DNA of 64,000 nucleotides from Oscillospiraceae bacterium (GTDB lineage: Bacteria > Bacillota > Clostridia > Oscillospirales > Acutalibacteraceae). Both the position numbers and the translations under genes were made by a program. Below the pieces are notes generated by a model. The model saw nothing but the letters and a program-made list of their open reading frames with translations. It was not told the DNA's origin and did not search any database. The DNA lies in NCBI GenBank assembly GCA_029012445.1, contig JAQXMC010000012.1, forward strand, positions 4,293-68,292, read 5' to 3'. The stretch's first letter is position 1. Each line of letters starts with the position of its first letter. Below, in pieces: positions 35,721 to 41,215 of this stretch.

Positions 35721-36698
35721 ATGACAAGACTTTTTCCGCTCATCGCCTATAAGGTGATGACAGTGATGCTCTCGATCATGTCCGCTCTCGGAATGATCTC
35801 AACGCCCTCGATCGACACGCCTGTTTCAACTGTCGATCCCGACACGGTCCAGATGACCTTCGCCGCCTGGGGCGACCCTCAGGTGTCAAACTATCTCTAT
35901 AAAAGAGAAGCGAGACTCGTCTCCGCCTGCAGCGATATCAAAAATTCTTCGGTTAAGCTCGACGCTCTCGTTATCGCCGGCGATATCGCCGAAAACGGCC
36001 TCGAAAGCGAATACAGAGTGGTCGCCGAAAACCTCAACGCTCTGAAAGACAAGGTCGACAACTTCATCATCGCCTACGGCAACCATGACTCAAGACTCAA
36101 GGCCTATCCGCTTCAATCAAAGAGAATTATGAAATTCCACAACAGCGTTTCAACAAAGCATCAGCTCACCGATCACCTCTACTATTCGGCAGAGGTCAAG
36201 GGCTACAAATTCATCGTTCTCAACAACGATAAAACCATGTTTGAAGAGGGCTATTACAGCCCCGAGCAGCTTGAATGGCTCGACAGCGAAATTGCTTCGA
36301 CTCAGGGCAGCGGAAAGCCCGTTTTCGTCGTCAACCACCAGCCGCTGAAAAAGTCTCACGGCCTTCCAAAAACATGGAACGCTCCCGAATGTCTGGACAA
36401 GGGCTCTATCGGCGAACAGTCAGATCAGATTCAGGCTATCTTTGAAAAATACAACAATGTTATTTTCATCACCGGCCACTTACATATGGGCTTCGGTCAA
36501 TACACCTATGAAGATCGCGGCTCCTATAAGCTGATAAATCTCCCCACGATCGGCTGCAGCAATTCCGACGGCTATGACGCCGACGGTCAGGGCTATATCT
36601 TTGAGGTTTATCCCGACAGGATCATCGCCAGAGCGAGAGTTTTCTCAACAGGCGAATATATGCCGCAATATGACATCACGATCCCGCTCAATTATTGA
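35721..36698 (+). CDS. secreted calcineurin-like metallophosphoesterase
   Basis: Signal-like N-terminus. Motifs are AAWGDPQ, AGDIAENG, GNHD and GHLH. Confidence 0.75.
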   Translation: MTRLFPLIAYKVMTVMLSIMSALGMISTPSIDTPVSTVDPDTVQMTFAAWGDPQVSNYLYKREARLVSACSDIKNSSVKLDALVIAGDIAENGLESEYRVVAENLNALKDKVDNFIIAYGNHDSRLKAYPLQSKRIMKFHNSVSTKHQLTDHLYYSAEVKGYKFIVLNNDKTMFEEGYYSPEQLEWLDSEIASTQGSGKPVFVVNHQPLKKSHGLPKTWNAPECLDKGSIGEQSDQIQAIFEKYNNVIFITGHLHMGFGQYTYEDRGSYKLINLPTIGCSNSDGYDADGQGYIFEVYPDRIIARARVFSTGEYMPQYDITIPLNY

Positions 36699-36891: not shown

Positions 36892-38472
36892 ATGAAAAGA
36901 TCAATAAAAAAAATCACGTCTGTTTTTCTCGCCGCGCTTCTGATATTCTCAGTCGCCGCTCCCGCAGCCTACGCTTATAACGGCAGCGCAAACAGAGTTC
37001 CGATCATTCTGGTCGGCGGCAGAAACAGAAATATGCCGATATACACGCCCGAGGGCGAAAGGGTGTTCCCCATCGGTGACACTCTCGACAAGAAAAAGAT
37101 CGGCGAAGCGGTGCTTCACTGCATTCCCTATCTCGGCGCCGGCATGATCAGCGGAAACTATAAGCCGTGGGTTGATGAATTTTATGAAGCCATCGCCCCG
37201 TATTATGAAAACATTCTCTGCGACGGCAACGGTGAGATCGCCGAAACAAGCCTTGAAACCACTTATGATTACACCAATCCGCAGAGAACGCCTTCAAATG
37301 AATGTGACTATTCTTTCAGCTATGACTGGAGAATTGACCCCTGCAAGGCGGCGGATTATCTCGACGCCTATATAGACACAATTATGAAAGCTACCGGCAG
37401 CAGCAAGGTCAGCCTCGTCGGCCGCTGCTACGGCGGAACGGTCATTTCTGCTTATCTTTATGAATACGGCTGCTCAAAGATTGACACCGCCGTTTATTAC
37501 ACATCTATATCTCAGGGCACGGGACTTCGCAGCAGCGAGATCTTCGCCGGAAAGTTCATGTTCGACTCAAAGGCTATCGAAGATATGTTCCTTGATCCGG
37601 ATATAGAGAAATATTTTGAAAAGGCGATTGACGATCCCGTCATGAGAGAGCTGATTCTTTCGTTCCTGAGCCTGCTCAACTCAATGGACGCTCTCGACAT
37701 TCCCATGAGCGCCCTGACGCAGTTCATCAACAAGGTCTATCCCGAGCTTGCCCCGAGAATAGTTCCCGCAACCTACGGCACATTCCCCTCAATCTGGAGC
37801 ATGGTCGCCGCCGAGGATTATGAACAGGCGAAGGCTCTCATTTTCAAGGGGCAGGAGGATAAATATGCCGGTCTTATCGAGAAGATCGACCACTATCACT
37901 ATGACATTCAGGCCAATGAAAAAACGATGCTTGCCGATCTTCAGAAGCAGGGACTGAGAATTGCCTTTGTCACAAAGTACAATGTACCGTCCTGCACACC
38001 GTTCACTGTCAGCGCGAGAGTCAACGGAGACAACGCGGTCGAGCTTTTCAGAGCTTCTCTCGGCGCGACTGCCGCAGATTACGGCAAGGTGCTGACAAGC
38101 GAGCAGATCAGCGCCGCCAACCCGAAATATCTTTCTTCGGATCACATTGTTGACGCAACGACCTGCGCATTTCCTGAATACACATGGTTCATCAAGGGCT
38201 GCGATCACTCAACATTCGCCAACAGCATCGACAAGCTCAACGCCGCTATCTGCAACAGCGAAGAGCCGATGACGGTCGACAGCGACCCGAATTATCCGCA
38301 GTTTCTCAAATTTGATCCGGACACCGCAGCTATTTCACCTCTCGCAGATGAGCCTGAAAAAGAAACAGGAAAGAGAAACAGCATCTTCGACATTCTCGGC
38401 AAGCTGTTCGACTTCCTCAAGCCGCTGTTCGAGACGCTCAAAAATTTCTTCAACAAGCTGTTTTCAAAATAA
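36892..38472 (+). CDS. secreted LCAT/lipase-like alpha/beta hydrolase with Cys at the nucleophile elbow and an amphipathic C-terminal tail
   Basis: Signal peptide ending AYAYN. Motifs are VPIILVGG, FSYDWR (LCAT-family hallmark), VSLVGRCYGG in place of GxSxG, NGDNAV and GCDHS. The tail is IFDILGKLFDFLKPLFETLKNFFNKLFSK. Confidence 0.7.
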   Translation: MKRSIKKITSVFLAALLIFSVAAPAAYAYNGSANRVPIILVGGRNRNMPIYTPEGERVFPIGDTLDKKKIGEAVLHCIPYLGAGMISGNYKPWVDEFYEAIAPYYENILCDGNGEIAETSLETTYDYTNPQRTPSNECDYSFSYDWRIDPCKAADYLDAYIDTIMKATGSSKVSLVGRCYGGTVISAYLYEYGCSKIDTAVYYTSISQGTGLRSSEIFAGKFMFDSKAIEDMFLDPDIEKYFEKAIDDPVMRELILSFLSLLNSMDALDIPMSALTQFINKVYPELAPRIVPATYGTFPSIWSMVAAEDYEQAKALIFKGQEDKYAGLIEKIDHYHYDIQANEKTMLADLQKQGLRIAFVTKYNVPSCTPFTVSARVNGDNAVELFRASLGATAADYGKVLTSEQISAANPKYLSSDHIVDATTCAFPEYTWFIKGCDHSTFANSIDKLNAAICNSEEPMTVDSDPNYPQFLKFDPDTAAISPLADEPEKETGKRNSIFDILGKLFDFLKPLFETLKNFFNKLFSK

Positions 38473-38537: not shown

Positions 38538-38579
38538 GCGGCGGACGGGCTGAAACAATTCAGCCCGTCCGCCGCTTTT
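38538..38579. terminator. strong GC hairpin between convergent genes (T-run on plus strand)
   Basis: GCGGCGGACGGGCTGA/TCAGCCCGTCCGCCGC followed by TTTTATATTTT. Confidence 0.75.
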
Positions 38580-38607: not shown

Positions 38608-40308
38608 CTATCTTCCGCCGCGCGTCGGCAGAGCGTTTATCATCTCAATAAGATTATCATAGAACTCATGCGTCAGCTCGGCCGATCTGTTCATTCCGAT
38701 GGCAGTTCCGTGATCTCCCACTATCGTCGGCATCACATTCCACACGCCCGGTCTGATCCTGTTTTCGTCAAAGTCGGTGAAAGCATCACCGAAAGGATAT
38801 TTTGCCGAAACGACATTGACGAGTCCGTCGTTTTCCAGCCATGTCTTGTCTATCGGGAAATCCGTCTGCTTGTTGACGCTGTAATTGCCGATAAGAAGTG
38901 CGGTCGCCTTGAGAACAGGCAGTGTTGAGGATATCGGCACCTGCGCGTCGGAGCGGGTTGACTTTTCCGTCGTGCAATAGGAATATGAGAAATAATAGAC
39001 ATTTTTGACAAGCGTTATTCTTTCGTTGAGCTTTTGCGCTCCGTCGGGAGAAAGATCATATATCGCGTTATCGTCGGAGCTGCTGATGACCTTTGCGACA
39101 GCGTTGAGATTGGCGCTGTTCGCCCCGGCGTCTTTCAGACCGAATTGCTCAAGGTGAAAGTCATAGAACTTCTGAAAGCTTGTGTTCTGAGACAGTCCGG
39201 CTATCGAGAAGCAAAGACCGAGGGCATATGAAGTCAACCCGTAATCCTCGGAAATATAATAGAGCGTCGAGCCGTTGTGCGGCGAACAGAGCGTCGTCAC
39301 GCTGTTGACGAGCTTTCCCTTGCCGCCGGTGAAAAGGCCGCTTGTGGTTTCATCAGTCTCTGCCAACTCCTCCGGCGCGCCGTATTCAAGCAGGTGCGTG
39401 AAGAGTCTGACCGTGTTTCCGCCGAAGGAATGACCGACAAGATTGATCTTCACCGTCCTCCCGTTTTCGTCCTCCTCGCCCCATGAGGGAACGAGCGGCT
39501 TTTCATATTTTCTGCCGAAGCGCGAATGGGAGTGCTGCTTTGAGTGGACCTCGCCGTAATCGACCTGAGTCCCCGTCAGCTCGGCGTAAAGCTCGCAGGC
39601 TCTGTCCCAGCAGCTGGAAAACGGACCGACATTCGCTTCATAAACGCTGTTGCCCTGCTTGTTCAGATATTCCGAAAGGCTGCCCGAATCGGCTCCCCAA
39701 TAAGGTGCAACCTCGTTTATCTTTGAGCCTGAGCCCCAGCCGCCCATGCCGTGAACGAGAACATAGGGGTAATCCGTTCCGCCGAAGATCATGGCGGCGA
39801 GTCTGTCATAGCCGCCCGTGAAATAGGGAACGACTGCGGCCGATATGAGCGCCGCGCAGACGACAAGTGATATCACTATCTTCAGGTACGCAGGCAGCGC
39901 TCTTCTGTATTTTCGCTTTTCAGCCGCCGCAGCCTCCTGCGGAATTTCGCTTTGCGCCGCAGCCTGTCCGTCCTCTTTCACAGTCAGAGCGGCGGCCGGC
40001 AGCTCTCCGGTGTCAAATTCGCTCCCGTATTCCGAAACGGGTGCGCCGCTGAAAGAGGAAATATCCTCGAAAGCGTCCTGTTCGTCTTCGGCGCCGTCTG
40101 AAATTATTCCGATGTTATCCTTAACGAGGGTGTCGGTGCTGACTGAAAATATCTCGCTTAGCATCAGCACTTTGTCAAGGTCGGGCATGACATTGCCCGA
40201 CTCCCATTTTGAAACCGACTGCCTTGAAACGCCGAGCCTTTCGGCCAGCTCCTCCTGCGAAAGGCCGTTTTCTCTTCTCAGAATAAATATTTTTTCGCCA
40301 AGTGTCAT
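38608..40308 (-). CDS. XRE-type HTH / single TM / extracellular family-I.5-like triacylglycerol lipase fusion protein
   Basis: HTH GLSQEELAERLGVSRQSVSKWESG; acidic linker; TM IVISLVVCAALISAAVVPYF. The lipase part has YPYVLVHGMGGWG, FSSCWDRACELYAELTG, NLVGHSFGGNT, ENDGLVNVVS and GDHGTAIG. AGGGAGG SD. Confidence 0.85.
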   Translation of the reverse strand: MTLGEKIFILRRENGLSQEELAERLGVSRQSVSKWESGNVMPDLDKVLMLSEIFSVSTDTLVKDNIGIISDGAEDEQDAFEDISSFSGAPVSEYGSEFDTGELPAAALTVKEDGQAAAQSEIPQEAAAAEKRKYRRALPAYLKIVISLVVCAALISAAVVPYFTGGYDRLAAMIFGGTDYPYVLVHGMGGWGSGSKINEVAPYWGADSGSLSEYLNKQGNSVYEANVGPFSSCWDRACELYAELTGTQVDYGEVHSKQHSHSRFGRKYEKPLVPSWGEEDENGRTVKINLVGHSFGGNTVRLFTHLLEYGAPEELAETDETTSGLFTGGKGKLVNSVTTLCSPHNGSTLYYISEDYGLTSYALGLCFSIAGLSQNTSFQKFYDFHLEQFGLKDAGANSANLNAVAKVISSSDDNAIYDLSPDGAQKLNERITLVKNVYYFSYSYCTTEKSTRSDAQVPISSTLPVLKATALLIGNYSVNKQTDFPIDKTWLENDGLVNVVSAKYPFGDAFTDFDENRIRPGVWNVMPTIVGDHGTAIGMNRSAELTHEFYDNLIEMINALPTRGGR

Positions 40309-40413
40309 CTGTCTGCCTCCCTTTGGTCTGATTATATACCTTGAATCCCGAAAAAGCCATAAAGCCGGCTGTATATTTTAAAACAGCGCCGTAAAGCCGG
40401 CTTGACAGCGAAA

Positions 40414-40881
40414 TTAACTGTATCTGACTTTGTTCTCAACGCAGATAATTCCCTTCGCCGTGATGTCTATCACACCGTAGTTCCCGTCGCGCAGGCTCCC
40501 CGGGTTAAAAAGATAAAGTCCGTCGCAATAGTCGGTCTGCGGTGTGTGAGTGTGGCCGAAAACGGCAATTTCGGCGTCATGCTCCCTTGCGGCGCAAACA
40601 AGAAGGCTCAGACCGTATTTCACTCTTTCGGCATAGCCGTGAGTGAGATATATTTTCTTTCCGCCGACCGAAACCGTCTCGCTGGCGCTCAGCTGAGAAG
40701 AAAAATCGCAGTTGCCTCTGACGCGGACAAAGGTTCTGTCCGGATAGAACGGGATCAGATCTTCAATATCGTCCGCCCCGTCGCCGAGGTGAAAAACATA
40801 TTTTGCCTCCGGCTGCTGTTCGATGGCGAGAGAAGCGCTGAAGCGGTCGCCGTGACTATCCGACATAACGAGTATTCTCAT
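40414..40881 (-). CDS. YfcE/MJ0936-family metallophosphoesterase
   Basis: 155 aa containing MRILVMSDSHGD, HLGDG, GNCD and FGHTH. Confidence 0.85.
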   Translation of the reverse strand: MRILVMSDSHGDRFSASLAIEQQPEAKYVFHLGDGADDIEDLIPFYPDRTFVRVRGNCDFSSQLSASETVSVGGKKIYLTHGYAERVKYGLSLLVCAAREHDAEIAVFGHTHTPQTDYCDGLYLFNPGSLRDGNYGVIDITAKGIICVENKVRYS

Positions 40882-40990
40882 TCATATTTCTCCCTTAAAA
40901 TGAATATTATATCTTGATCCGCCTGAACCTGCGCAAAGGCCGGCACCGGACGGATACCCTCCGGTATATCAATTATATCATCAGAAAGAA

Positions 40991-41215
40991 GTGATTTCAA
41001 TGGATAACGGCACGCTTAACGAACTTATGAAAAAAATAAAGAACAAGGAGTCCTCCTCACCTCATGAGGTCGACGATTTTATCAACAAAAATCTGACGCC
41101 GTCGCAGGCGGCGACGGTCAACAAAATATTGCAGGATCCTCAGATGATAAGCCGTCTGCTCTCAAGCGAACAGGCAAAGCAGCTTCTCGGCAGGCTTGCG
41201 GATAAGGAGGAATAG
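40991..41215 (+). CDS. hypothetical small protein (helical; start uncertain, ATG at 41000 also possible)
   Basis: 74-aa ORF. It is the first of three tightly packed small ORFs. Confidence 0.5.
   Translation: MISMDNGTLNELMKKIKNKESSSPHEVDDFINKNLTPSQAATVNKILQDPQMISRLLSSEQAKQLLGRLADKEE

Follow-up and report, generated by a model that had tools for sequence, protein, structure and literature searches.

Transmembrane transcription regulators (TTRs), in which a DNA-binding domain and at least one transmembrane (TM) helix occur in one polypeptide, were catalogued by Demey et al. in 2023; HTH_3 is present in ~9% of them as the fourth most common DNA-binding domain, and the census tables contain no lipase domain and few Abhydrolase or Glyco_hydro entries (PMC10269533). 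By what means such membrane-tethered regulators locate their DNA sites and turn a signal from outside into transcription is poorly understood, and the few studied cases have non-enzymatic sensors. Here, we analyzed a stretch of 64,000 nucleotides (hereafter, the window) from an Oscillospiraceae bacterium (family Acutalibacteraceae in GTDB; assembly GCA_029012445.1, contig JAQXMC010000012.1), one gene of which encodes an XRE-type helix-turn-helix (HTH), an acidic linker, a single TM helix, and a lipase domain in one open reading frame (ORF) (Table 1). This HTH-lipase, having both a DNA-binding domain and a predicted TM helix in the same polypeptide, has the domain composition of a TTR and is similar to ToxR, TcpP, CadC, and TfoS in the succession of N-terminal cytoplasmic DNA-binding domain, linker, single TM helix, and outer domain. 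Comparison of its relatives and their promoters indicates that it is probably an autoregulated single-pass TTR with a lipase as its outer domain.

Within the class, ToxR, CadC, and TcpP combine a winged helix of the OmpR type with periplasmic sensors that are not enzymes, whereas the HTH-lipase carries HTH_3 and a full lipase with an intact triad, and it is not a member of the ToxR family because no Trans_reg_C domain was matched in Pfam. A ToxR-like sensor was one of two readings proposed earlier from the window without database searches (the sequence-only reading); its DNA-binding and topological part agrees with the conserved, phased palindromes described below, while the ToxR family proper had to be dropped for lack of an OmpR-type winged helix. 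TTRs act on promoters while membrane bound, and the only target seen here would be the protein's own promoter. BcrR, which has an XRE-type HTH and four TM helices but lacks an outer domain, controls the neighboring bcrAB genes. This one-component transmembrane bacitracin sensor of Enterococcus faecalis (PMC3968067) resembles the HTH-lipase in being a one-component regulator of a Firmicute that is bound to the membrane and has its HTH at the N-terminus, whereas the latter has one TM helix, a 390-amino-acid (aa) outer enzyme, and no conserved neighbor. RsgI of Clostridium thermocellum (RsgI6, GH10), from the same bacterial class, is likewise N-in and single-pass with an outer enzyme-family domain, and this domain reports insoluble substrate to the transcription machinery inside (PMC4711584, PMC10328401). 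However, RsgI binds a sigma factor and signals by autoproteolysis and intramembrane cleavage, whereas a DNA-binding domain is found here, and RsgI6-GH10 is nearly without catalysis (PMC4711584), whereas the lipase triad of the present family is invariant. Neither the RsgI_N sigma-binding domain nor a juxtamembrane autoproteolytic module was matched in Pfam, and the protein is not an RsgI.

The soluble phage repressors lambda cI, P22 c2, and 434 share the Cro/C1 fold with the HTH-lipase (P22 c2 was among the PDB sequence matches), and the candidate operator here is likewise an 18-bp palindrome in a paired and presumably cooperative arrangement, but the repressors dimerize via a C-terminal domain, in place of which a TM helix and an ectoenzyme are found here. 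In the trigger enzymes PutA and BirA, too, catalysis and DNA-binding regulation reside in a single polypeptide, with autogenous control, which is probable for the HTH-lipase as well (for the concept, see PMC3715855 and PMC3178575); the known ones are cytoplasmic or peripheral, whereas in the HTH-lipase the catalytic and DNA-binding parts are predicted to lie across the membrane from each other. Full-text literature searches returned no description of an HTH-lipase fusion or of the operator pair (P1 and P2) presented below. The operator pair is newly recognized. The sequence-only reading knew of no described system coupling an extracellular lipase to a DNA-binding domain; the broader class of transmembrane regulators is known, and the lipase combination is unlisted there (PMC10269533).

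The fusion is genuine and widespread. A collection of 5.8 billion proteins contained 1,596 relatives, of which the best 120 clusters, down to 46% identity, were examined, and a scan of one genome per GTDB species yielded 188 stretches encoding a relative, of which the best 80 were fetched as loci. HTH and Lip_C occurred together in all of these 120 clusters (496 to 609 aa), the named ones being annotated as "helix-turn-helix domain-containing protein" from Clostridia or Eubacteriales, and the full-length fusion was found in 80/80 loci. These loci, mostly from gut metagenome assemblies, were labeled chiefly as Acutalibacteraceae, Ruminococcus sp. CAG, Candidatus Fimenecus, and Clostridia from human, ruminant, and horse gut. 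With so many independent assemblies among the 120 clusters and 80 genomes, an assembly or sequencing artefact fusing two genes is refuted and can be given practically no credence; the conservation of the domain architecture, which the sequence-only reading had suggested checking, held throughout, and the attempted refutation by an artefact or by split genes failed. No relative of the HTH-lipase was found on viral contigs, and a phage origin was rejected on that ground. In P0177, a protein of 1,002 aa, 11 separate regions aligned with the query HTH, pointing to tandemly repeated XRE HTH domains.

The sequence-only reading had recognized a canonical XRE/Cro HTH in residues 1 to 65, followed by an acidic linker, a KRKYRR patch, and one TM helix, and each of these elements was recovered. 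HTH_3 matched residues 10 to 60 (E 1.2e-15; 57.6 bits versus a gathering cutoff of 23), with HTH_19 and HTH_31 also matched, and the domain comprises five helices with a predicted local distance difference test (pLDDT) score of >90 in an AlphaFold2 (AF2) model built from a 23-sequence alignment. In this model, the confident HTH is followed by a disordered region (residues 65 to 135, pLDDT ∼30), a helix (140 to 164), and an alpha/beta domain. The linker, predicted to be disordered, contains 24% aspartate plus glutamate in the window protein and ∼30% across 81 family members, in which its length varies from 17 to 114 aa. The sole strongly hydrophobic 19-mer is preceded by KRKYRR and overlaps the AF2 helix; the whole hydrophobic segment is ∼23 residues long, with a conserved proline shortly after it. 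The 15 residues preceding the TM segment hold on average 5.6 lysines plus arginines in the 81 members and the 15 following it hold 1.75, and this bias around a single hydrophobic segment therefore predicts an N-in topology, with the HTH inside and the lipase outside. Since only ∼15 residues separate the TM helix from the lipase core, the lipase domain is predicted to be held near the cell surface by the TM helix.

That the lipase is instead freed by signal peptidase after the TM segment, leaving an HTH-TM stub in the membrane, appears very improbable. Small residues at the outer end of the segment (ISA|A; family consensus IAA) do resemble an AXA site, but with ∼23 residues the segment resembles a stop-transfer anchor and not the core of a signal peptide, the conserved proline comes close after it, and some of the genomes additionally encode secreted paralogues that have an ordinary signal peptide. 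Regulated proteolysis, by which an inactive membrane form would receive a lipase-side signal and be cleaved in or near the TM helix, freeing a soluble HTH for P1 and P2 in the manner of RsgI and regulated intramembrane proteolysis or of CREB-H, is unlikely as well, although the long disordered linker and the small TM residues (ISAAVV) would permit cleavage and the single-pass N-in RsgI proteins of Clostridia work in this way (PMC10328401, PMC12203970). Against it, no autoproteolytic or SEA-like module was found by Pfam and no conserved protease gene nearby in the 80 loci, and many transmembrane regulators act without release (PMC10269533); besides, such cleavage would alter only how the HTH reaches DNA and not its target.

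Mean pairwise identity among the 81 members was 65% for the HTH, 17% for the linker, 42% for the TM segment, and 60% for the lipase, and thus the DNA-binding domain is the most constrained part of the protein. This bears on the second option of the sequence-only reading, a RodZ-like protein. RodZ is alike in its N-terminal HTH, one TM helix, and extracytoplasmic C-terminal domain; RodZ binds MreB, whereas a cognate-looking DNA palindrome accompanies the present protein, which is not RodZ because neither HTH_25 nor DUF4115 was matched at E≤0.01. The fused proteins form a small clade, with ∼10 to 12 representatives among ∼400 lipase relatives (E<1e-30 in a library of representatives at 50% identity), and their nearest non-fused relatives use a homologous TM helix at the N-terminus, SLH repeats, or Cu_amine_oxidN1 as a surface anchor; anchoring is therefore a family theme, which would suit an N-terminus that merely tethers the lipase, with the HTH as a protein-docking module or inert ballast. 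Yet a plain TM anchor suffices in the relatives P0123 and P0128, the HTH is HTH_3 rather than HTH_25 and is the best conserved segment, no RodZ-type C-terminal domain is present, and the phased palindromic operator pair would be left unexplained, so that we regard both the RodZ-like reading and simple tethering as highly unlikely.

The assignment of the remainder to a family I.5/I.6-type lipase with the motifs HGMGGW, GHSFG, and DGLV and a C-terminal histidine, also made in the sequence-only reading, was borne out by database comparison. Lip_C (PF24708) matched residues 179 to 553 (E 2.3e-62; 211 bits versus a gathering cutoff of 27), and the NCBIfam model for YSIRK staphylococcal lipases (NF047351) covered residues 179 to 555 (E 2.6e-76) with 257 bits, below its 650-bit cutoff, only its catalytic part (model positions 332 to 697) being matched. 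Solved lipases aligned with residues ∼176 to 561 (8yye, 1.9e-71; 5ah0, 4.6e-69; 5ah1, 1.1e-68; Geobacillus T1/L1, ∼1e-58; Staphylococcus 2hih, 1e-52), with about 40 to 45% identity over ∼385 residues. In the alignment with T1 lipase (2z5g), S294 (GHSFG), D494 (NDGLV), and H533 (GDHG) fall on the catalytic residues (S113, D317, and H358 in T1 numbering); H186-G187 of HGMGGW falls on the oxyanion HG; and the four Zn ligands, the T1 tetrad D61, H81, H87, and D238, are matched by D235, H255, H261, and D418. The triad, the HG oxyanion motif, and the Zn ligands are shared with family I.5 (Geobacillus T1/L1/BTL2) and I.6 (Staphylococcus) lipases, whereas the Ca-site residues past the catalytic histidine are not kept, and HTH, linker, and TM helix take the place of the signal or pro-peptide at the N-terminus. 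Across the 23-sequence alignment (down to 48% identity), the triad was invariant and the Zn ligands were invariant or at least 90% conserved, and GHSFG occurred in 23/23 members, being neither the AHSQG of I.5 nor the GHSMG of I.6. Because the triad is invariant, catalysis itself appears to be under selection, and the lipase is apparently active. In P0111 and P0113, VSGMGG replaces VHGMGG, the oxyanion histidine being changed to serine, and the triad is intact.

Analysis of the upstream regions revealed a palindrome of 18 bp, P1 (TGTAAA-N6-TTTACA, equivalent to N4 between 7-bp arms; consensus ATGTAAAC-N4-GTTTACAT), which was exact in 55 to 56 of the 80 loci and present with two mismatches or fewer in about 70, mostly 100 to 135 nt upstream of the start codon. 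Outside the upstream region, the 1.13 Mb of loci contained 18 P1 matches with up to two mismatches, of which about half were gene associated (misplaced start codons or an intragenic copy) and the remainder was near the estimated chance rate. P1 was found regardless of the upstream gene, including seven loci where that gene is divergent. Among 63 distinct P1 sites, the six outer bases of each arm were essentially invariant and the center was variable, with positions 7 and 12 noncomplementary in ∼30%; part of this invariance is circular because the sites were picked with the motif itself, while the 55 to 56 exact 12-base matches are not. As RNA, P1 would form only weak hairpins (-4.7 to -8 kcal/mol), one clade excepted, and Rfam returned nothing credible upstream. 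As a general explanation, a terminator of the upstream gene was rejected in view of the divergent upstream genes and of arms conserved in sequence rather than in pairing, and it is further countered by the weak hairpins, the phased spacing, and the intragenic copy; P1 looks like a protein site rather than a hairpin. The intragenic copy (ATGTAAA-N6-TTTACAT) is located at +314 in the linker-coding region, where the peptide DVKPALH is encoded, in loci L029, L041, L043, L046, L049, and L052; its arms are invariant and its flanks vary, and it represents a single event because the six genomes are 88 to 95% identical.

Downstream of P1, a near-consensus promoter (TAGACA, TTGAAA, or TGGAAA, 17 nt, TATAAT) was recognized across the family, and a second, related palindrome of the AAC-N4-GTT type, P2, abuts its -35 box, with its center ∼10 bp upstream of the center of the -35 hexamer. 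The forms of P2 include TATCAAC-N4-GTTGATA, TGTAAAG-N4-CTTTATG, and, in one clade, TGTAAAC-N4-GTTGATT; in the clade of L068, L077, and L079 the left half of P2 is TGTAAAC, and therefore a half-site common to P1 and P2 exists, pointing to a shared binder. Relative to a transcription start site (TSS) placed 7 nt past the -10 box, P2 is centered near -42 and P1 near -75, -85, or -95. When the loci were collapsed into 20 clades (for this test only), the distance from the P1 center to the -10 box was 42.5, 62.5 to 66.5, 71.5 to 76.5, 82.5 to 85.5, or 124.5 bp, with a Rayleigh p of ∼1e-4 at a period of 10 to 10.5 bp and no significance at 7 to 8 bp, and spacing differences of one or two helical turns were also seen within clades. 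Such phasing is expected if a protein at P1 must face a promoter partner and is unexpected for a terminator.

The window has the same layout, matching that of 64 related loci, and the upstream stretch that had been flagged from sequence alone (40360 to 40402) does contain its copies of the palindromes. The candidate P1 is the only site with up to two mismatches in the 64 kb and is centered at about -74.5 from the predicted TSS and 62.5 bp from the -10 box, which is the main class of the family; the candidate P2 lies 10 bp upstream of the -35 center, and both are in register with the family. The latter aligns with the P2 (TGTAAAGCCTGCTTTATG) of L201 and L202, relatives at 58% identity, in which P1 is exact and P2 has the same form as in the window.

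Three lines of observation point to the fused HTH itself as the probable binder. Where P1 is present, the recognition helix hardly deviates from VSRQSVSKWE(S/T)G, while L001, the lineage closest to the window with an altered helix (VSVQSVFDWESG), is without P1, as are second paralogues in L036 and L071 (helix KCVSDWEDG), the canonical copies in the same two genomes having an exact P1. An independent sample was provided by 120 metagenome contigs (668 kb, mostly environmental chance hits) with an exact TGTAAAC-N4-GTTTACA, in which the only recurrent gene family beside the motif was this HTH, in L128 (an HTH-lipase), L093, and L096; these carry P1 70 to 120 nt upstream, and no other strong HTH match was present in this sample. 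P1 and P2 are read as the protein's own operators because of the covariation, the metagenome sample, and the fact that the site follows the gene through unrelated contexts, and the XRE-TM-operator unit is read as a chassis onto which a TM-anchored lipase would have been grafted. The proteins of L093 (450 to 1322, minus strand; 290 aa, membrane bound with several TM helices) and L096 (1821 to 2285, minus strand; 154 aa, HTH, linker, and one TM helix) have the helix VSRQT(I)xKWE(S/N)G and the exact motif 70 to 93 nt upstream, and L096 also has a P2-like TGTCAAC-N4-GTTGGTA.

The second HTH-TM-lipase paralogues (L036, 1448 to 3178; L071, 6024 to 7739) carry TCAAATCAGTTGA as a conserved element at the -35 box instead and may be a specificity-diverged duplicate circuit. 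In addition, lipase paralogues of 420 aa with a signal peptide were found ∼5 kb from the HTH-lipase in L041 (2892 to 4154), L046 (2878 to 4140), L049 (2868 to 4130), and L052 (2875 to 4137), with a P1-like TGTTAAC-TTAA-GGTAACA at about -80 that is one base per half-site off P1; in these closely related genomes they could be a regulon member, or the element could be another factor's site.

Several points weigh against autoregulation by the fused HTH. Helix conservation alone is weak evidence because VSRQSVSKWESG is close to the generic HTH_3 consensus, the covariation rests on two deviant lineages only, and the counts overstate independence because the loci are phylogenetically related. The sites of the window are degenerate, weaker copies, with two mismatches in P1 and ∼4 in P2. 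In the L002-L012 clade, P1 has gained GCG/CGC extensions and a T-run after it, so that it would work as a terminator too and may double as one there. Nothing connects DNA binding with the activity of the lipase, no regulon member emerged from the window and the loci, and self-regulation alone may seem a poor return for so conserved a domain. Finally, a separate regulator could recognize P1 and P2, in which case the palindromes would be real but bound by an unlinked factor, and the fused HTH would have other targets or none. The near-generic recognition helix and the degenerate window sites would suit this explanation; however, the sites accompany the gene in many unrelated neighborhoods, vanish in lineages with a changed helix, and reappear at XRE-TM genes sharing the helix, and self-regulation is the more economical account, so that an unlinked factor is improbable.

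Under autoregulation, membrane-tethered HTH dimers would reach the chromosome via the flexible acidic linker and govern the transcription of their own gene through cooperative binding to P1 and P2. The near-consensus core promoter and the extra intragenic P1 in one subclade suggest repression by looping. At PRM, lambda cI uses one operator at about -42 plus an upstream partner, and the same -42/-75 layout here suggests, by analogy, activation. Elsewhere in the 64-kb window and across the loci (1.13 Mb), sites like P1 occurred only at the chance level, with no conserved second target, and because the neighborhood is also unconserved, the minimal circuit would let the level of lipase at the surface act back on the promoter of its gene, a copy-number feedback on a potentially self-damaging surface enzyme. 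More speculatively, lipid engagement (lid opening, acyl-enzyme formation, or product binding) may alter dimerization across the membrane and tune DNA binding. That the lipase is truly a sensor, whose interfacial activation or acylation on dietary or host lipid switches the XRE domain at P1/P2 via the TM helix, is a tentative idea that we hold to be doubtful. If true, this would be a membrane-spanning trigger enzyme whose catalysis outside the cell directly informs a promoter; gut Acutalibacteraceae would thereby have lipid sensing and lipid degradation in a single protein, and the XRE-TM-P1 unit would be reusable, with different outer domains grafted on, as in L093 and L096.

Even as a minimal circuit, the family would show that direct feedback control of a surface enzyme requires no partner gene. 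It makes the question of how membrane-tethered regulators work testable, as it offers an assayable and mutable outer activity (S294A), a conserved operator pair with helical phasing, and further natural variation in linker length (17 to 114 aa) and specificity. Moreover, the family is common in uncultured Acutalibacteraceae of gut and rumen, where commensal lipid handling is little known.

Table 1. Features of the HTH-lipase gene and its flanks (window positions; residues numbered from the predicted start)
Feature	Position	Strand	Basis or details
Complete ORF, 566 aa, HTH-linker-TM-lipase	38608..40308	-	ATG start; Pfam and structure-database matches
XRE/Cro-C1 HTH, residues 1-65; recognition helix VSRQSVSKWESG	40114..40308	-	HTH_3 (Pfam)
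Acidic cytoplasmic linker, predicted disordered, residues 66-139	39892..40113	-	pLDDT, family alignment
KRKYRR positive patch, predicted single TM helix, and short juxtamembrane helix, residues 140-172	39793..39891	-	AF2, lysine plus arginine bias
Predicted extracytoplasmic lipase domain (Lip_C; family I.5/I.6-like), residues 176-566	38611..39783	-	Pfam, T1 alignment
Ser294 codon	39427-39429	-	T1 alignment
Asp494 codon	38827-38829	-	T1 alignment
His533 codon	38710-38712	-	T1 alignment
Ribosome-binding site GGGAGG	40318..40323	-	Sequence; 9 nt before ATG
Putative sigma-A promoter	40331..40359	-	Read from sequence; -35 TGGCTT (40354-40359), 17-nt spacer, -10 TATAAT (40331-40336)
P2 operator candidate, TATACAGCCGGCTTTATG	40358..40375		Inverted repeat; abuts/overlaps -35 box; center ∼-42.5
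P1 operator candidate, TGTCAAGCCGGCTTTACG on gene strand	40390..40407		2 mismatches to TGTAAA-N6-TTTACA
GC-rich 17-bp hairpin, T/A runs either side	38538..38575		Putative bidirectional terminator, common to convergent gene 36892-38472

With regard to genomic surroundings, neither tblastn of 24 window neighbors against the 80 loci nor all-against-all clustering of the 80 neighborhoods revealed a conserved operon or partner gene, the commonest neighbor family being present in only 23/80 loci, and the HTH-lipase gene is a stand-alone unit. Recurrent neighbors, identified by eye without a Pfam scan, were amidohydrolase/deaminase-like, MtnA-like, nucleoside-phosphorylase-like, and galactokinase-like and look like unrelated housekeeping genes. 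The convergent neighbor downstream in the window (36892 to 38472, plus strand) codes for an alpha/beta-hydrolase-like secreted protein of 526 aa that gave weak matches to LCAT, Abhydrolase_1, and PHA synthase and has G-R-C-Y-G at the position of the GxSxG nucleophile elbow and a conserved YDWR motif. Its family comprises ∼130 unnamed Clostridia protein clusters, with the elbow cysteine in the consensus and not among the columns conserved at ≥90%, and it adjoins the HTH-lipase in only 2 of the 80 loci. Two calcineurin-like metallophosphoesterase genes flank the lipase pair (35721 to 36698, plus strand; 40414 to 40881, minus strand), the product of one having a signal- or TM-like N-terminus and that of the other being a small YfcE-like Metallophos_2 protein; the latter gene lies just upstream of the HTH-lipase, on the same strand, with a strong promoter-like site at 40972 to 41000. 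L202 is the contig encoding P0005, which shares 57% identity with the protein of the window; there, and in no other locus, the product of the gene directly upstream (198 to 1160) gave a weak match to zinc-dependent phospholipase C (Zn_dep_PLPC).

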